A stretch of 55,252 nt of DNA. Source: a virus. Taxonomy: Duplodnaviria; Caudoviricetes. The translations under genes and the position numbers were made by a program. The notes beneath the pieces are model-generated. The model was not told the DNA's origin, made no database searches, and worked only from the letters and a program-made list of their open reading frames with translations. Shown piece after piece: positions 2,271-23,946 of the stretch; positions within the stretch are counted from its first letter, which is position 1, and the number at the start of each line of letters is the position of its first letter. The DNA lies in the IMG/VR virus record IMGVR_UViG_3300037258_000366, positions 1 to 55,252 of that record. One strand, given 5' to 3'.

Positions 2271-5200
2271 TTATGTAAACCCGTTAGCCACCGCCACGTA
2301 TAGCCACTGACCTATAGTAGCGTTGTAAACAAAGCCTATCAGATCAGTGTACCCCGAAGAGGTTGACAGTGAGGGTGGCGGAACGACTGACGGGAATTGG
2401 TAACCTGCTCCCCAGTTAATTAAGTATGGGCCACCGGAGCCCTGAGTTATCTGGAATAGTATTCTCTGACCGTCAGACGGACTCGATGGAGTAGCTATAG
2501 TGTGAGAATTTCCTGTGAGCGTAAGCCTGAAGTCATTTCCTAAGGCCGAATTTACGCTTATTGTCGATGCATCAGTAAGTGTTACTACATTAGGTGCCAC
2601 CGGGCTAATTGTAAGATCAATCCACGTCCCTCCCTTATAAACGGCGAGTGGTGTCATTGAGCTAACAGTATAACTGTTACTAAGATCGATGTAGTCTACC
2701 AGAACTACGTTGGCTGTACCAACAATGGAGAATCCTGATGTGTATGAATTCTGCATTGTGAAATTTGTAAACATTGCTGAAACATCAGCGCCGTTGCCGT
2801 TAAGCCGCACGAGAGGGGCATATGATGGTGACGTTCCTATAGCAAGTTTACAATTGCTGAACTCCCATCCTGCCGCACCTCCAGTGATATTGATAAGATA
2901 ATCATTAGGAGGTGCCGAAGAAGGCCACCCATTCCACAAAACATCTCGGAATGCTGTCAGTACAGTTGATGATCCGCCAGATCCGATAACAAAAATCTGA
3001 GCATTCTGAGACTGAATTGCCTGGCGGGTTTGCTGTACAACGCCAGTCTCATAGAAGTCGCAGTAATTTCCGCCAGGTTGTGCCCCGAAAAGCTGGTATC
3101 CGGAAGATGAATTGTAGTATCCGTAATAACACAGGCCAGCTGAGCAGTTAAACAGCACATGATCATACTGATTGCCTGAGATTCCATTGCCGATGTAGAA
3201 TCCGTACTGCCACGGTCCAGATGTTGTCCATGATCCTAATGTCTGTCCGCCGTTTACAACAATATCTATTAATGTTGATCCGTCAACCTGATATGCGCCG
3301 CCGATCGCACCAATTCTTATTCCTGCAGTAAAGTTCATATTTCTTACACGAATACTTCTCAGTGTGTTCCCGCTTGTTGAACGGCCAGCAGTAGATGGGT
3401 TCCATGTCAGGTAGAAAGCGTTGGGAGCAGTTCCGGTTCCCGCTATGGCGAACTTCTCGAATGTACTGTCAAGAGATCCATTTACAAATATTACAGCATT
3501 CGTGAAGCTAGTCCCTGTTGAGAAGATAGTTGTTGCCGTTGTGCCTGAACCAACTAGCTGAAAACCTAACACAGATACGATGTTAATATCTGATGAAATA
3601 TGATAGCTACCCGCACTCATATGTACCGGGCCGAGAGCATAAGCACTGCTTGTAGTCTGGTTGTATCCGATAAATGCTGACTGTGCTGAGAGATTACTTG
3701 TAGCAGCAGCAGCTACAGTATAACCGACTCCTGGTGTAACTGCAGTTATATGAGAATATCCGGTTGAGAAATTGGTGCTGTTAATATACAAACCTAGATC
3801 TGTTGACAGCGCTGAGGGATTAGTTACAGTTGTAGAGCTAGCTGTGTATCCCAGATTGTTGTAGAACCGACCGCCCAATGAAGCAGCAATTGTTTTATTG
3901 AACGCAAGCGTTGAATCTGTATTTCCTGTAGGATCAGCACCAAAAGCATCAACATCAAACCATGGCTTACCGGATTCAAAGATTTGGTTTCCTGTCCATG
4001 TGTTGGCTTCGGGCAGAAGTCCTACGTTGTTATTAACTCCTCCTATAATTACTGTATTCAGCGGAACATCAAGAAGAGGAGATCCACTCTCACCGCCAAC
4101 ATTTTCCAGTATCAGCGCTCCATAGGTTTCCGGGCAGTATACATGATATGCCCCCGTACTGAAACCCCCGCCTATGGTACCGCTATTGCGGATCGTAATG
4201 TTATTGCAGTAAAGTCCTGATCCGGTTCCCTTAAGAAGCTGAAACAAGGAACCTGTGAATGTCGTGGTATCGTAGCATTGAACATTCTCGATGACAGAAT
4301 AGCTGCATCCTGCCAGAGTGATAACTCCGGCATCACATTCTTCACAGTCGATATCCCTGAAAATGTTAGCCGCCTGCCACGCATCTCCCGTGCATTCGAT
4401 ATGGAAAAAAGTAGACGTTTGACTATGTGCCCCTTGTAGTACTAACGGCCCCCAAGTATTCGTGTTAATCGAGCTGGTCGGACCCACCATGTAAACAGCC
4501 GGGAGGGTGGCATTCCCGGCCATGTCCATGATTGTATGGCCACCAAAGTAACAGCCGATCCACGTCATACTTGTACCGTAAATGATGCAGTGACTTGAAC
4601 TATTGGACACGAACGCGCAGTTATTGACAACCCAGCCACCGGCTCCGGATGGGCCTGTTCCAAAGTCAAAAATATGACCGGCATCACACGTAAGGGAAAT
4701 ATTGGTCATCGTGAGATTGGTGATGCTCCCGCTATTTATCTGGAACATATCCGTGGTTTCATTTCGGATCTCACCGAGAGCCAAATCTCCCCCCTCAGCA
4801 GAGGCACCGAGAAAGGTGACATTGCTGTAAAGAGTCATGGGACTTGTGGTCTTAAATTTATACGTTCCCAGGTAAACGGTCCCGCCAACAGCACCGGCTG
4901 CTGTAATCGCATCTTGTACAGCGGTAGTATCATCTGTTAGGAGTGCTCCTCCAGCACCGTAATCCATCGGACTGAAAATATTACCAATGTGAGCAACGAT
5001 TAAATCTTCAGCATTAGTTCTGTTAGTCGTTTCAACAGACACTGCAGAATCTGCATAAGCAGTCGTAGCTATCTGAGTATTATTTGTCAGAGGAGAAGCA
5101 GTCGGCGCCGCAGGAATTCCTGTGAATACTGGTGAAACGATTGGTGCTGCACCTAAAGCTGTGCGAGCGGCAGATGCTGAAGTCGCAGAAGTACCACCTT

Positions 5201-20160: not shown

Positions 20161-21759
20161 CTAGTCTTCCCAGGGCCAGCGAGCCTCTCTGCCGCGCTCT
20201 ATCAGCGGAATCATGCTGAATGTCGCATCGGACAAACCGCCCAGTTCATGCCTTGTCCCGACACCCGAAGGCATCATCGACTTGGAATAACCGCCAAGAT
20301 TGAATCCGTATAGATAAGTGTTCTTAGGAACAACATTATCTACTGATCCATGCCAGTCAAAGAAAGCCTGGCCATCTGTGAAAATAACTACCCTCTTTGC
20401 ATCCGCTCCAAGAGTACGACGCACTGAAGCTACTGTCTGAGTACCGTAGCCAACTTCACCATTTCTGCTGTAGAAGTGTGCTACTGCCTTAAGGACAGAA
20501 GAACCAGTTGGTATTACATACTCAAATACACCGTCAGCGTACCCGAACAATCTCACTCTTCCCTGATTCTTCCTGGCAAGAGCTACACCGAACAATCCGG
20601 CAGCCTCATGACAAGCCAGTTTGCTCTTGTCAGAAACGCGAGACTGCATGGAACCAGAAGTATCCACATAAATATAGGTTATTCCTGGCAACTCTGGGAT
20701 ATTCTGGGTTGAGTAATCAAGCGCCTTCTCCAGAGCCTTGCCGTAGTTAAGGCTGTTCAGTTCCTTGTAGGCAGAAACAAACCTGAAAGGGAACTGTCTT
20801 GACTTAGCCACGATCTCCGGGTTGGACAGCTTCTCGCAAACAGCCTCAACTGAAGCGTCAGAAATTCCCGCCTCATCGAAGTTACGAAGGTTTCTCAGAG
20901 TAGCCATATACCCCATTGAAGGTATCATAGCTTCCCATAGATCATCCTTAGGAACTCTTGATCCTGCCAGGGAAAGAGCATCTTCCCATGTCATTCCTGC
21001 TGCCTTCAGGTTCTCTGCGTCCAGAAGAGCCTCAGGATGATTTACTGCCTTCAGGCGAAGACCTTCATTAGCAGAAATCATAGGAAGCTGATGTCCAGAG
21101 CCTTCCCAGACATTATTGAATCTCCTGGCCTGAGAGAAACTGTAAACAGCAGCCTGATTCTCACCAACTGGTGATGCATGTACCATGTTCAGTACATCAG
21201 CGAATCTCCAGCCATGAGAAGCTGTGTCATACTTCAGCAGCGAATACTCGTTGTAGAGTCTTGCACATGCATCAGAAAGACCGCGCTTAACAGGCATTGG
21301 AAGAGGCTTGCCATACTTGGAAACCCAGTAAGCAAGAAACTCTCCTGGCTCATCCGCTCTCTGGCATACAGCCCTGATAAACTTCCTGTTCCATCCTTCG
21401 GTGCCCTGCATATTATCAGTCAGTCTTGCACGTACGGCAATTGCTGCTCCTGTGATAGAAGCAGTACGTATGTTTCCTGTACCACGCAGCCAGTTAAGGA
21501 ACCCAAGCATCCACTTAGGATCTTCTCTTGCTACAGCAGTAATCAGCTTCTCCCAGCGCACTTCTCTCTGGCTTGCTGACTCGTAGAAAGTCTGCTCACC
21601 GAAGAAATAGTTCACGCCCAGAAGGAATAGCTCGGACTTAGTCTCGCGGTCAAAAGCAATGCCACCCTCACAAGTGACTGAGCTTCCTGCTATTGACTTA
21701 ACTGGCGAGCGTCCTGCTGGTACTGTCCCTGGAGTGTTTAGCTTAGACATATTATTCAC
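20161..21759 (-). CDS. rsr: Ro60/Rsr-family TROVE domain protein with C-terminal vWA domain
   Basis: SELFLLGV..FFGEQTFYE, RADEPGE, MTWE, MGYMATLRNLRN, SRQFPFRF (TROVE); VDTSGSM and FTDGQ (MIDAS); Y-RNA-like array immediately upstream. Confidence 0.92.
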   Translation of the reverse strand: MNNMSKLNTPGTVPAGRSPVKSIAGSSVTCEGGIAFDRETKSELFLLGVNYFFGEQTFYESASQREVRWEKLITAVAREDPKWMLGFLNWLRGTGNIRTASITGAAIAVRARLTDNMQGTEGWNRKFIRAVCQRADEPGEFLAYWVSKYGKPLPMPVKRGLSDACARLYNEYSLLKYDTASHGWRFADVLNMVHASPVGENQAAVYSFSQARRFNNVWEGSGHQLPMISANEGLRLKAVNHPEALLDAENLKAAGMTWEDALSLAGSRVPKDDLWEAMIPSMGYMATLRNLRNFDEAGISDASVEAVCEKLSNPEIVAKSRQFPFRFVSAYKELNSLNYGKALEKALDYSTQNIPELPGITYIYVDTSGSMQSRVSDKSKLACHEAAGLFGVALARKNQGRVRLFGYADGVFEYVIPTGSSVLKAVAHFYSRNGEVGYGTQTVASVRRTLGADAKRVVIFTDGQAFFDWHGSVDNVVPKNTYLYGFNLGGYSKSMMPSGVGTRHELGGLSDATFSMIPLIERGREARWPWED

Positions 21760-21778
21760 ATCTCCTTACATAGAAAAA

Positions 21779-21870
21779 CCGCCTGAGGATAAGTCGTAAG
21801 TCAGTGTTTTTATCTGAACTGTTATTTAATATAACTATTAGAAGTAACTGACTAACCTCGCATCAGGCGG
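21779..21870 (-). ncRNA. Y-RNA-like gene A (Ro-binding stem, AU-rich payload)
   Basis: Terminal helix ccgcctga/tcaggcgg; motif GATGCG-N8-CAGTTACTTC; second helix agtcagt/actgact. Confidence 0.7.
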
Positions 21871-21882
21871 CGGTTAAAAATC

Positions 21883-21975
21883 ACCAGAGAACGAGGTGAG
21901 GACGGTTGGGGCCTTCTCGGACCCCTGATTGTGTTTCTTGGCGAGAAGAAGTATCCGTCACTCTTCACAACTGGT
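21883..21975 (-). ncRNA. Y-RNA-like gene B (two-hairpin payload)
   Basis: accag/ctggt; GTTGTG-N8-CGGATACTTC ... GTTCTCT; hairpins ttct/agaa and ggggtc/ggcccc. Confidence 0.7.
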
Positions 21976-21994
21976 TTTAAGTATTAAGTTTTAC

Positions 21995-22134
21995 GATGCT
22001 AGAGAATAATTCGGAAGCAGAAATTTTAGCGCTCTGCCGTTGAGCTACATCCCGAAGAAGCCGGGATGATAGGAGTCGAACCTATAACCTCTCGTTCCAT
22101 AGACGAAGTAACTGATTCCTGCACATCTAGCATC
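21995..22134 (-). ncRNA. YrlA-like Y RNA C carrying a complete circularly permuted tRNA domain
   Basis: gatgctag/ctagcatc; CAGTTACTTC; then anticodon-like arm, T arm atagg-TTCGACT-cctat, closed acceptor catcccg/cgggatg, D arm gctc-AACGGCA-gagc. Confidence 0.85.
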
Positions 22135-22145
22135 TTAAGTTTTTA

Positions 22146-22218
22146 AGGGCGCACTAAACCTTAGTGCTATACCGTCCGTTCCCAGGCAGCTATCAGGACT
22201 TGAACCTGAAATCTCCCT
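22146..22218 (-). ncRNA. Permuted tRNA-like element D without a Ro stem
   Basis: aggg...T arm tcagg-TTCAAGT-cctga, imperfect closed acceptor, D arm gcac-TAAGGTTTA-gtgc, g-ccct. Confidence 0.6.
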
Positions 22219-22225
22219 CGCTTGT

Positions 22226-22360
22226 GTACCAGAGAATCGTTTTGATCGCGGAGTTTGTATTCATAACCTCCGGGTTTTGAGCCCGGCGCTCTATTGTTGA
22301 GCTATAATCACTATTTTTGGTGTAATTAATGAAGTAACCGTGATCATTCACATCTAGTAC
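22226..22360 (-). ncRNA. Y-RNA-like gene E carrying a tRNA domain opened at the T-loop (anticodon CAA)
   Basis: gtactag/ctggtac; CGGTTACTTC; acceptor taattac-ACCAAAAATA-gtgatta, D arm, anticodon arm ccggg-CTCAAAA-cccgg, T stem atgaa/ttcat. Confidence 0.8.
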
Positions 22361-22363
22361 TAG

Positions 22364-22434
22364 AGGCACTTACTGGATTTGAACCAGCGTAAACGGTTTT
22401 GCAGACCGTCACCTTGCCACTCGGTCAAAGCGCC
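22364..22434 (-). tRNA. tRNA-Cys(GCA)
   Basis: acggt-CTGCAAA-accgt; U73. Confidence 0.92.
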
Positions 22435-22440
22435 ATATTT

Positions 22441-22547
22441 GTACTTGAGAATAAGATGAACTCCGGAATAGTGTGCCTTTACAGCATCTATTTCTAGATG
22501 CCTTGGAATCGAACCAAGAAGTAACCGTTGTTCTTCACATCAAGTAC
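22441..22547 (-). ncRNA. Y-RNA-like gene F (T arm plus closed acceptor minihelix)
   Basis: gtacttga/tcaagtac; CGGTTACTTC; cttgg-TTCGATT-ccaag; gcatcta-GAAA-tagatgc. Confidence 0.8.
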
Positions 22548-22550
22548 TAG

Positions 22551-22627
22551 TAGCGGTGGCCGGATTTGAACCGAGCGATCTCTTGCTTATGAGACAAGCG
22601 AGGACAACCGAACTCCTCTACACCGCA
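22551..22627 (-). tRNA. tRNA-Met(CAT), initiator-like 1:72 mismatch
   Basis: cttgt-CTCATAA-gcaag; U1:U72 mismatch, but lacks the three G-C anticodon-stem pairs of typical initiators. Confidence 0.85.
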
Positions 22628-22637
22628 CCGAAAGGAT

Positions 22638-22713
22638 AGAGAGCTAGAGAATAATTCGGGAACGGTGTCTATTCGCTGTAAGAAGTATCCGTACCCTGCA
22701 CAACTAGCACTCT
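22638..22713 (-). ncRNA. Y-RNA-like gene G (minimal, short payload)
   Basis: gctag/ctagc; GTTGTG-N7-CGGATACTTC ... TATTCTCT; gggtacgg/ccgttccc helix. Confidence 0.7.
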
Positions 22714-22747
22714 TTTTAAGGAGGAAAAATGATGCGCTTCCCTGATG

Positions 22748-22822
22748 TACCGCCTGCGGGAATCGAACCCGCGACAACCAGATTGAAAGTCTGGGCACCA
22801 ATACCATCATAGTAAAGGCGGC
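22748..22822 (-). tRNA. tRNA-Glu(TTC)
   Basis: ccaga-CTTTCAA-tctgg. Confidence 0.88.
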
Positions 22823-22884
22823 ATGTTGCCGATGAGATTGGAGCAGACTGTGCATGCATATCGATTCCCTCACCGGCAAGTACT

Positions 22885-22913
22885 ACTGTACCACAAGGCC
22901 GACTCTGTGTCAA
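22885..22913 (-). promoter_or_regulatory. Principal-sigma promoter for the tRNA/Y-RNA/Ro60 operon
   Basis: TTGACA-N17-TACAGT with TG extension. Confidence 0.8.
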
Positions 22914-22935: not shown

Positions 22936-23946
22936 CTAGCCCAGAACCAGAAGACGTGTGCCTTTTATAAGCTTGCGGTTAATACTAGTTGACTGCACGA
23001 AAATAGTGTAGTCTCTGTAGTCTTCTGGCTTAACATCAACCTTCTCATCAGGGAGACCGAGCAACTGCCTGGCATTTCCTGTGTATACTGTCCCAGTTGA
23101 GTTAACCATGATGGCTAGCTGCTTCTGCGGCTGAATTGTTTCCTTCTTCATTAGCTGATAATAGCCAGTTCCTACCTTGTAAGGCATTCCTAGCCTGTCT
23201 GTGAAGAAATCATCAATCCTTCCGTCTGCCATAACGTTCTGAAGCGAGTAAAGATAATTCGGCAGGGGTGTAAGACTGCCTATAATCTCTGAAACAGACA
23301 CTTTGCTGAGCTTGAACAGGCTTCTGGTGCCTCTTATACCCTTAGTTCTGTTGACCATGAAGGTTTCAGAGGTTCTTCTGATGGTTTCTCCTACTTCAGC
23401 GAGACCATCAGTAGCAGAAGTGTTCCATACTGCTATGTTTTCTGCGGGAAAACCGAACTTTTTGGCCTCATGAACCCCAATTTGGTCAGGAACAAAGCCT
23501 GCAAGGGTCCAGTGATCAGGCAAACCCGCAATTTCAGCCGCTAGCTTGCCTGGTTTGGCCCTGCTATCGTTTTCTTTGCCGTCCGTGAGCACATAAACGA
23601 GAAAGGAATGCTCCCCATACTTCTCTGGAGTCATCTTCAGGTCCGAAATAGCCAGTAAGGTAGCGTCTATGAGCGCTGTAGTGCCGTATGCTTTGTACAA
23701 TCCGGCAATGCTTGGCATTCTCAGAACGTCTTTGTCGTAAATCAGGCACTGGATATTGTCCGGGTAGTCAAATGTGTATACTGTTATCCGTGTTTCCTGA
23801 TCTAGCTCCTTAGATCTCTGTGCTAAGTACTTAATCTGATTGTCCGCCACCTTTACAACGTCATCGGTGCGGTAATACATGCTTCCTGAGCCGTCAAGAA
23901 CTAATACAATGTGATTAATGTAGTTCGGGATTGCCGTGCTTGTCAT
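22936..23946 (-). CDS. von Willebrand factor A (vWA) domain protein
   Basis: VLDGSGSM MIDAS, TALIDA, LTDGKEN. Confidence 0.85.
   Translation of the reverse strand: MTSTAIPNYINHIVLVLDGSGSMYYRTDDVVKVADNQIKYLAQRSKELDQETRITVYTFDYPDNIQCLIYDKDVLRMPSIAGLYKAYGTTALIDATLLAISDLKMTPEKYGEHSFLVYVLTDGKENDSRAKPGKLAAEIAGLPDHWTLAGFVPDQIGVHEAKKFGFPAENIAVWNTSATDGLAEVGETIRRTSETFMVNRTKGIRGTRSLFKLSKVSVSEIIGSLTPLPNYLYSLQNVMADGRIDDFFTDRLGMPYKVGTGYYQLMKKETIQPQKQLAIMVNSTGTVYTGNARQLLGLPDEKVDVKPEDYRDYTIFVQSTSINRKLIKGTRLLVLG

Follow-up and report, generated by a model that had tools for sequence, protein, structure and literature searches.

Among Y RNAs, the YrlA type is known to mimic tRNA; in the published passages considered here, these RNAs are described without an anticodon loop, an additional hairpin being taken as a variable arm. 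Chen et al. 2014 (PMC4201824) report there a fourth stem-loop, “V”, in “many” YrlAs, equate its region with the variable arm, and name the sequence YUAY. In the part of the structural study of Salmonella Typhimurium YrlA (bioRxiv 10.1101/312249) that we drew on, the anticodon stem is assigned to nt 15–27 and 83–93, the RNA “lacks the anticodon loop”, and most YrlAs are stated to resemble circularly permuted tRNAs. Here, we describe unit 4 (22134..21995, minus strand), one of six Y-RNA-like units located in front of the rsr gene of the virus record IMGVR_UViG_3300037258_000366 (Caudoviricetes). The record, referred to as the window, is one linear contig of 55,252 bases, whose completeness CheckV puts at 48%. 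Among the sequencing runs listed, three DNA runs of soil metagenomes contain this stretch entirely or in part, and none is recorded as RNA. Encoded by an uncultured soil phage, unit 4 is a Y RNA of the YrlA type and belongs to a known rather than a new class.

Our reading, to which we assign a probability of roughly 0.6 as a whole, is that the head of unit 4 is a circularly permuted yet complete tRNA mimic, comprising T arm, acceptor stem, U8-A9, D arm, G26, a 5-nt variable loop and an anticodon-like arm, the stem of this arm being a composite one interrupted between tRNA positions 28 and 29, and the whole having arisen from tandem tRNAs. The hairpin itself has been described before, as “V”. 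No description of it as a complete anticodon arm whose stem is composite was found in literature searches or in the passages of PMC4201824 and bioRxiv 10.1101/312249 used here, and the terms “anticodon”, “tRNA-like” and “YrlA” do not occur in the portion of the phage Ro60 structure paper PMC12135203 covered by a term search.

A YrlA-type Y RNA upstream of rsr

The first-pass annotation of the locus had labelled unit 4 a YrlA-like RNA, which is borne out by a match of its head to the Rfam YrlA model and by a gene coding for a TROVE and vWA domain protein on the same strand. In a permissive scan with this model (RF02553), which is independent of the unit 4 sequence, positions 22092-22028 scored 29.8 bits (E 4e-4 in a 1.25-kb scan, 4.3e-6 for the contig). 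Alignment to the model, proposed along with the annotation as a check, succeeds for the head (model positions 24-84 of 114); the rest of the unit remains unaligned, and the gathering cut-off of 69 bits is missed. At gathering thresholds, Rfam searches returned tRNAs only, both in the window (28/28 matches) and in 17 related viral loci (24/24), and since none of the 17 loci reaches the YrlA cut-off, this group of Y RNAs appears to be poorly covered by the curated model. In its native order, unit 4 scores 22.8 bits with the Rfam tRNA model RF00005 (22130-22061; cut-off 29), and is not called by ARAGORN.

The element order of a YrlA head, i.e., T arm, closed acceptor stem, UA, and D arm, is found in unit 4, as is the Levitt pair 15:48 (A15:U48), which is G:C or A:U in 43/46 and 16/18 homologous units. 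At the place of the published 5' motif GNCGAAN0-1G, unit 4 has UGUGCAGGAA and the family has GGUGCG(C/A)AGG, which is similar without matching literally. Binding by Rsr, pseudouridine 55, and dihydrouridine are further criteria of the YrlA type (Chen et al. 2014).

The Ro60/Rsr ortholog (532 aa; 20161..21759, minus strand) combines a TROVE domain (E = 3.9e-19) with a vWA domain (VWA_2, 23.2 bits, under the cut-off of 27). Its open reading frame (ORF) starts about 240 nt downstream of unit 4 on the same strand, which is within the 4 kb used as a criterion in published work, and its product is the presumed protein partner of the unit 4 RNA. Relatives of this protein are encoded on 19 viral contigs (40–49% identity) and in 19 genome records (40–52% identity), 18 of them from Actinomycetota; the nearest ones in isolated phages, among 98 matching records, occur in phages of Streptomyces, Gordonia, and Arthrobacter (38–42.5% identity). 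The motif GKWTACTTC is present in 16 of the 19 viral loci with Rsr relatives, mostly at ≤ ~500 nt upstream of the Rsr match. It occurs eight times in the window, as compared to 1.46 expected occurrences (8 reached in 0/100 shuffles), and four of these copies lie inside the 1.1-kb array of units; units 4 and 6 carry the variant AGTTACTTC. When the 1.18-kb array was compared with 50,697 phage records by blastn, only embedded tRNAs were recovered (83 records, none spanning 80% of the query).

Fold of unit 4 and covariation among its homologs

Base-by-base inspection located all segments named in the first-pass annotation in the same order on the minus strand (the annotation had named no strand), and all pairs as written are canonical. 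The outer limits of unit 4 coincide with the two strands of a 9-bp basal stem (22134-22126 / 22003-21995), formed by GAUGCUAGA (22126..22134) and UCUAGCAUC (21995..22003); in 32 homologs, the corresponding columns (6-14 / 149-157) covary. Of the internal loop, the 5' side (UGUGCA, 22120..22125) aligns with the family block GGUGCG(C/A)AGG, while the 3' side (GAAUUAUUC, 22004..22012) corresponds to a conserved family block CGAC-UUGAUCUC; its CCGAAUUAUUCUCUAGC run recurs in unit 1. By analogy with section 6 of Chen et al. 2014, as far as that text was considered, GGUGCG(C/A)AGG is presumed to be the contact of Ro60/Rsr. The upper Y helix, which has one U.C mismatch, is formed by GGAAUCAG (22112..22119) and CUGCUUCC (22013..22020), and the respective columns (22-29 / 131-138) covary.

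Two linkers connect this helix to the head. The 5' linker UUACUU (22106..22111) holds the conserved YUAY (UUAC, 22111-22108) and an invariant UU, these columns being invariant in three alignments; the 3' linker AAAAUUU (22021..22027) corresponds to 6–8 nt in homologs which, read by eye, are often UACGU-like. The head itself consists of an anticodon-like hairpin (22093..22105) with the strands CGU (positions 29–31) and ACG (39–41) and the loop CUAUGGA (32–38, triplet AUG), followed by A and G of positions 42-43 (22091..22092), the variable loop AGGUU (positions 44-48, 22086..22090), whose U48 pairs with A15, the T arm AUAGG-UUCGACU-CCUAU (22069..22085), the closed 7-bp acceptor stem CAUCCCG/CGGGAUG (22048..22068) with the loop GCUUCUU (22055-22061), U8-A9 (UA, 22047-22046) together with the D arm GCUC-AACGGCA-GAGC (22045-22031; both elements, 22031..22047), and G26 (22030), C27, and U28 (22028..22030).

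The single-sequence fold of unit 4 only mildly beats shuffled sequences (z = -2.43; 3/200 shuffles as good). The main support for the structure is comparative, since Rsr-adjacent homologs retain every helix through compensatory changes. Homologs were collected by a regular expression for the T-loop/D-arm core and subsequently by a covariance model, R1, built from 33 aligned units. R1 yielded 82 matches at E ≤ 0.01 over 39 sources, with units beside Rsr in most loci; tRNA-tRNA junctions among the matches were removed by inspection. For 32 full-length units of viral contigs and Actinomycetes, RNAalifold predicted basal stem, upper helix, T arm, acceptor stem and D arm, with compensatory changes in 27 of 32 pairs. 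The T arm is paired in 99.4% of cells and shows compensatory changes in 4/5 pairs; the acceptor stem is paired in 97.6% and covaries in 7/7 pairs, and the D arm is paired in 100% of cells. Alignment rows indicate that the terminal stem of unit 4 departs from the family consensus through paired changes. As covariation among homologs shows, a tRNA-shaped head sits on the upper helix of unit 4, below which lie the internal loop and the basal stem.

An anticodon-like arm in the head

The first-pass annotation had counted all four tRNA arms in unit 4, and all four are indeed represented; the anticodon-like hairpin, whose conservation in homologs had been left to be checked, is kept in 38 units. These come from two sets. 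The 50 best rows of R1, after removal of two tRNA-tRNA junctions and one partial row, comprise 47 units, 28 of which form class II, defined by a 3-bp local hairpin with a loop of 7–8 nt. The loop has 7 nt in 25 of the 28, and among these 25 loops, position 33 is U in 24, position 37 a purine in 25, position 38 A in 24, and position 32 a pyrimidine in 21. The variable loop of class II units has 5 nt in 21/28, and position 26 is a purine in 26/28. Class I units, as read by eye, have a closing helix of 4–5 bp, lack such a loop, and conform to the Rfam-type topology. The second, independent set was obtained from 151 evenly drawn Actinomycetes genomes, 20 of which had a match at E ≤ 1e-10, and consists of units unused in model building. 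Realignment of 28 matches from 23 loci of this search gave 18 Y-scaffold units and 10 tRNA-tRNA junctions; ten of the 18 Y units belong to class II (U33 in 10/10, A38 in 10/10, purine 37 in 9/10).

U33 and a purine at position 37 are marks of tRNA anticodon loops, and the loop of unit 4 reads C32 U33 A U G G37 A38. Of the inner hairpin pairs, C-G is constant, and the other two vary in a compensatory manner (GC11 CG10 UG5 AU2 UA1 for columns 16-27; AU15 CG6 UA4 for columns 17-26). The triplet at the anticodon position varies widely among homologs; conservation of the loop frame together with variation of the triplet suggests a role in structure or protein recognition rather than in decoding. 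Unit 4 also offers the contacts G26/A44, A9/U12-A23, G45/G10-C25, and G46/C13-G22, and 26/44, 9/12-23, 45/10-25, and 46/13-22 with these bases are core triples of class-I tRNA.

When the pieces of each class II unit were rejoined in tRNA order, ARAGORN called 27 of 28 units for a break at 28/29 and all 28 for a break at 26/27, so that the de-permuted sequences score as tRNA, another check that had been suggested at the outset. A yes/no call is a weak test, because most shuffled controls pass as well, and the ARAGORN threshold was consequently scanned for the 25 units with 7-nt loops. The mean highest passing threshold was 115.7% for 28/29, a mean lowered by one unit not called at all, and 117.0% for 26/27, as compared to 71–96% for five shuffle sets; in the individual units, the 28/29 version scored above the other in 19 cases and below it in one, with 5 ties. 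Unit 4 was called tRNA-His(atg) up to a threshold of 121% (28/29) or 118% (26/27), whereas its shuffles stop at 100–109%; at 121%, only one of the 30 real tRNAs of the window is still called. What unit 4 satisfies in restored order is a resemblance to tRNA, not membership in the tRNAs.

Position of the chain break

The first-pass annotation had read a self-contained 5-bp hairpin (UUCGU 22107-22103, loop CUAUGGA 22102-22096, ACGAG 22095-22091, minus strand) and placed the chain break between positions 26 and 27. The three inner pairs of this hairpin stand, as they covary. For the two outer pairs, covariation favors another partner of positions 42-43, namely U22028/C22029 instead of U22106/U22107, and we consider it probable that the 5' strand of the anticodon stem is nicked between 28 and 29, the Y scaffold entering and leaving there. 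The resulting composite 5-bp stem of unit 4 would combine three local pairs (22105-22103/22095-22093) with two long-range pairs (C22029-G22091 and U22028-A22092), C27 and U28 closing the stem from the 3' side; we favor the view that both parts stack on each other.

The long-range pairs were found by RNAalifold, model-free, on a first MAFFT alignment (columns 29-98, AU15 GC12 CG4 GU1; columns 30-97, GC21 AU6 CG3 UA2). In a second MAFFT alignment of 32 units, they are paired in 85.9% of cells, as compared to 65.1 ± 3.5% in shuffles (0/500), with 15 doubly changed cells; slid controls gave 23–42%, except for a slide of +1 (73%). In the full-length alignment, RNAalifold left out both the 3-bp hairpin and the 2-bp closing helix; of the two, it predicted the closing helix alone in the shorter first MAFFT alignment.

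Several observations weigh against our reading. The YrlA cut-off of Rfam is missed, with only the head aligned. Class II units were selected by formation of the three inner pairs, and the counts for the two long-range pairs in these units (42-28 in 27/28 and 10/10 units, 43-27 in 28/28 and 10/10) rest on alignments fitted to a model in which both pairs were already included. Support for the composite stem amounts to two base pairs, and as the sequences are related, shuffle controls overstate significance. Of 28 controls with a shuffled arm, ARAGORN still called 24 as some tRNA, including 10 whose loops were abnormal. The nearest-neighbor energy of unit 4 is -33.8 kcal/mol with the composite stem and -39.3 kcal/mol with the local 5-bp hairpin, and the minimum free energy (MFE) of -42.8 kcal/mol belongs to a third pairing, ACUUC/GAGGU, without the hairpin; the nearest-neighbor model ignores coaxial stacking and tertiary contacts. 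Expression of unit 4, binding of Rsr, cleavage by RNase P and function are all predictions from sequence.

Alternative readings

The same YrlA-type RNA might carry the self-contained hairpin UUCGU/ACGAG after all, with the break at 26/27 and the bases following G26 forming an unpaired linker. Besides its lower energy in unit 4, this arrangement can draw on the ability of the UU to pair with positions 42-43 in 25/28 and 24/28 units, on the complete set of ARAGORN calls after de-permutation at 26/27, on four homologs which ARAGORN calls tRNA-Asn in native order via this very hairpin, and on a homolog lacking the D arm (L013, ~3876-3892), which has a local 5-bp stem CCUGA/UCAGG formed without the UU. 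Yet the outer UU pairs of the 32 MAFFT-aligned units show zero doubly changed cells, and their 87.5% pairing is the same in 500 of 500 shuffles and compares with 90.6% in a control slid by -1, so covariation speaks neither for nor against such a pairing of the two unvarying U. In units with a pyrimidine at position 42 or 43, the UU pairs fail and the long-range partners co-change, and the 28/29 version had scored higher in 19 of the 25 units of the threshold scan. We regard a break at 26/27 as possible but rather unlikely; the two pairings may also alternate. Far less credible is a head in which the hairpin does not form at all, either because ACUUC (22109-22105) pairs with GAGGU (22091-22087) or because the segment is unstructured debris of an old tRNA. 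Both the MFE and the centroid structure of unit 4 use ACUUC/GAGGU, which is pairable in 76.2% of cells in homologs, but none of its pairs shows a compensatory change, its two sides being conserved for other reasons; for lack of covariation, it was rejected as the conserved fold. The inner hairpin pairs, in contrast, covary, and loop length and signature are kept across viral and bacterial homologs.

According to the published reading, the hairpin is the variable arm of a tRNA, the upper Y helix is the anticodon stem, and an anticodon loop is missing. It has on its side the naming of stem-loop V and its equation with the variable arm in the passages of Chen et al. 2014 (PMC4201824), the solved Salmonella structure without an anticodon loop, as far as bioRxiv 10.1101/312249 was considered, and the Rfam consensus, in which a 4-bp helix closes the head and no hairpin precedes the variable loop. 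For the class II units this reading seems improbable. Their loop bears an anticodon signature (7 nt, U33, R37, A38), unlike the short loop of a V arm; the 5 nt (RGGUN) between hairpin and T stem in 21/28 units equal a class-I variable loop ending in the Levitt partner; and D stem and upper Y helix are separated by 1+2+6–8 nt, not by one base. That unit 4 is a true circularly permuted tRNA gene, giving rise to a decoding tRNA-His (AUG) with the Y flanks as a processing scaffold, is the least probable of the alternatives. ARAGORN calls de-permuted unit 4 a tRNA-His(atg) even when its threshold is set high, YrlA of Mycobacterium smegmatis is cut by RNase P and CCA-tailed in vivo according to the passages of Chen et al. 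2014 (PMC4201824), and permuted pre-tRNAs of algae and an archaeon are cited in the part of bioRxiv 10.1101/312249 used here. The lack of a conserved triplet among homologs speaks against decoding, though; a CCA is absent from the acceptor loop GCUUCUU, the phage already possesses a tRNA-His(gtg), and the flanks are conserved as a Y-RNA stem beside Rsr. Moreover, bacteria are not known to have a ligation step that would rejoin the anticodon stem.

Probable origin from tandem tRNA genes

To account for the tRNA-like parts of the array, the first-pass annotation had proposed repeated capture of tRNA sequences into the Y scaffold. This is not needed, as units 3 and 4 have positional counterparts in a related viral contig (L018) and as the covariance model matches tandem tRNA-Asn junctions. 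In the class-wide search, the strongest matches outside rsr loci covered model positions 15-92 with 62–70 bits; ARAGORN identified such matches as seven tandem tRNA-Asn(GUU) junctions, two tandem tRNA-Gly(GCC) junctions, and one Ile-Ala junction. The tRNA-Asn(GUU) pairs occur in seven Actinomycetes genomes (L048, L059, L061, L063, L069, L070, L073), followed by tRNA-Met in six of them, and their spacer has 4–5 nt in six genomes and 57 nt in one. CUGUUAA, the commonest loop of class II units (5/28, plus near variants), is the anticodon loop of the real tRNA-Asn genes seen. Dimeric tRNA transcripts as the source of YrlAs were proposed in the model of Sim and Wolin, as cited in the considered part of bioRxiv 10.1101/312249, and this model is favored here because the Y-subfamily model matches tandem tRNA-Asn junctions. 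Descent from a tandem tRNA junction best explains the architecture: the upstream tRNA copy would have supplied the anticodon arm, the variable loop, the T arm and the 3' strand of the acceptor stem, the spacer would have become the acceptor loop, and the downstream copy would have contributed the 5' strand of the acceptor stem, the D arm, and positions 26-28.

When 160 real tRNAs and 50 further units were ranked by identity to the de-permuted unit 4 head, the unit at the same place in L018 came first (77.5% identity), followed by other Y units; the best real tRNA reaches 72.4% and the best tRNA of the window 70.7%, with means of 64% for Y units and 60% for tRNAs, a small margin that decides neither way on capture. 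The differing arrangements of the units look like old paralogs kept in related phages, not like recent captures, and a dimeric-tRNA origin with later diversification fits better than recent capture.

Organization of the array

The whole array (21772..22913, minus strand) comprises, in this order, a promoter-like site, tRNA-Glu, unit 1, tRNA-Met, unit 2, tRNA-Cys, unit 3, a free permuted tRNA-like element, and units 4, 5, and 6; all features mentioned in this section are on the minus strand, as are all 30 tRNA genes of the window. The promoter-like site (22913-22885) consists of TTGACA and TACAGT, separated by 17 nt, with an upstream TG (10/12 matches). Directly upstream of it, a second vWA-domain protein of 336 aa with weak Pfam matches under the cut-offs is encoded (22936-23946). 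“Stress protein”/TerD-family genes are located near the Ro-like gene of the Streptomyces phages BRock and Alone3, and both phages also have matching Y-RNA units upstream of this gene (BRock, L041 2443-2546 and 2797-2900; Alone3, L042 2435-2537 and 2790-2888).

That the locus holds several permutations or truncations of tRNA, as noted in the first-pass annotation, is confirmed by the differing arrangements in neighboring units. Unit 1 (22716-22638) is a short Y-like stem without tRNA parts. Unit 2 (22549-22439; fold z = -4.23) carries a T arm (UUGG-UUCGAUU-CCAA) and a closed 7-bp acceptor-like hairpin within the Y stem. Unit 3 (22362-22222; fold z = -5.24) is a Y-like unit that encloses a tRNA body in normal order, consisting of a closed 7-bp acceptor stem UAAUUAC/GUGAUUA with a loop starting with ACCA, UA, a D arm, G, an anticodon arm CCGGG-CUCAAAA-CCCGG, and AGGUU; instead of a T loop, a stem UUCAU/AUGAA runs into the Y scaffold. 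Its counterpart in L018 (6812-6962; 72% mean column identity), which shows compensating changes in the anticodon-like stem, retains a full T arm. The free permuted element (22226-22140) has no Y motif; it contains a closing helix GAGGG/CCCUU, a T arm UCAGG-UUCAAGU-CCUGA, a weak acceptor-like hairpin, and a D-like arm GCAC..GUGC, its fold barely beats shuffles (z = -1.58; 15/200), and R1 matches it with only 20.5 bits. Units 5 (21978-21883) and 6 (21875-21772) are Y-like and lack tRNA parts, the latter ending in a long stem and UUUUU just ahead of the ribosome-binding site of rsr.

Among the tRNAs of the array, tRNA-Met(CAT) (22627-22550) has a U.U mismatch as its first acceptor pair in the Rfam alignment. 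A 1:72 mismatch is a hallmark of bacterial initiator tRNA, and this tRNA may be initiator-like. A Rfam tRNA match at 22311-22185 with 40.4 bits, above the cut-off of 29, contains a 56-nt insertion and is a chimera of the D and anticodon arms of unit 3 with the T arm of the next element; its acceptor strands scarcely pair, ARAGORN makes no call, and it is likely a false annotation. In phage Alone3 (OR725492.1), a 74-nt tRNA-Ser(gct) is annotated at 2774-2847, directly upstream of the Ro-like gene. It overlaps a Y-RNA unit (2790-2888; R1, 48.3 bits), with its “anticodon” located in the loop CUGCUAA, and is probably a Y RNA annotated as tRNA. With an anticodon-like arm, it becomes understandable that units of this kind are labelled as tRNA by tRNA-finding programs and in at least one GenBank record of a phage. 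For the window, the outcome is mostly one of annotation, i.e., a six-unit Y-RNA array with three tRNAs before a phage rsr gene.

Proposed processing and function

The layout suggests that unit 4 would be transcribed together with five Y-like units and three tRNAs from the one promoter-like site, and then be cut out. A short A-rich block (ACAACU..AGAUG / AACUUAAGAUG), seen by eye upstream of the basal stems of many units (window, ~22145-22131; loci L001, L011, L012, L014, L015), is possibly a processing site. By family resemblance, basal stem and internal loop may bind the phage's own Ro60/Rsr, while the head could be handled by tRNA enzymes, as published YrlAs are. Following the example of M. 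smegmatis YrlA, in the part of its description considered here, RNase P would cleave the 7-bp acceptor between 22055 and 22054, with subsequent trimming and CCA addition. By analogy to Deinococcus radiodurans and S. Typhimurium, as treated in the passages of PMC4201824, the RNA might tether or gate Rsr for degradation or surveillance of structured RNA during infection.

The 38-unit comparison, covering phages and Actinomycetes, describes a hairpin with the size and signature of an anticodon arm, completed by two covarying far-end pairs. It would widen the candidate partners of such RNAs from elbow-binding proteins to readers of the anticodon arm, and it lends concrete support to the idea of a dimeric-tRNA origin, with a tRNA-Asn-like pair indicated. 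A bolder proposal, which we consider unlikely, is that the V stem-loop of actinobacterial and phage RNAs is a working mimic of the anticodon arm, derived from the upstream tandem tRNA copy and engaging anticodon-arm readers, and that arrays such as the present one act as decoys or sensors. If true, aminoacyl-tRNA synthetases, enzymes modifying the anticodon loop, and anticodon nucleases of the host could engage the hairpin, and a phage with 30 tRNAs could use the array against tRNA-directed host defence, coupled to Rsr-mediated RNA surveillance.

Comparison with known systems

Tandem tRNA-Asn(GUU) junctions share with unit 4 the element order, which begins with the anticodon arm of the first copy and runs through position 28 of the second, with the spacer at the place of the acceptor loop. 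They differ from it in being real tRNA genes, each copy with its full set of arms, and in having neither Y stem nor UUACUU linker nor an rsr neighbor. Permuted tRNA genes of red and green algae and an archaeon, in the part of bioRxiv 10.1101/312249 drawn on here, resemble unit 4 in the rotated order of their parts and in an acceptor stem that starts as a closed loop; their transcripts are circularized and reopened to decoding tRNAs. The triplet of unit 4, in contrast, is not conserved. Bacteria and phages are not known to have such a circularizing tRNA pathway.

Yrn1 of D. radiodurans (RF01053), likewise a Y RNA with tRNA-like parts, has the 5'-strand block CGGUUACUUC of its Rfam consensus in common with unit 4. 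Unlike in unit 4, its D-like, anticodon-like and T elements occur in normal order inside the stem, an arrangement that resembles unit 3 of the array (23.2 bits, E 0.21). In the Rfam consensus of YrlA and in the Salmonella RNA, a helix closes the head and an anticodon loop is missing, whereas in unit 4, on our reading, a local hairpin with a 7-nt loop makes up most of the anticodon-like stem, and only 2 bp close the head; the 5' stem motif of unit 4, UGUGCAGG, compares with GNCGAAN0-1G in published YrlAs. RNase P cleavage, CCA addition and Rsr binding were demonstrated, in the passages of Chen et al. 2014 (PMC4201824) considered, for the M. smegmatis YrlA only, and would apply to unit 4 by analogy. 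That RNA, of about 147 nt (unit 4, 140 nt), also has a 7-bp acceptor stem and a position upstream of rsr, and in the same passages is processed from a precursor common with a second Y RNA, which would be a further likeness to unit 4. With the YrlA class (RF02553) in general, unit 4 shares its location beside rsr on the same strand, a stem with the presumed Ro60 site, a head with the order T arm, acceptor, UA, and D arm, the Levitt pair 15:48, the YUAY sequence, and a fourth stem-loop.

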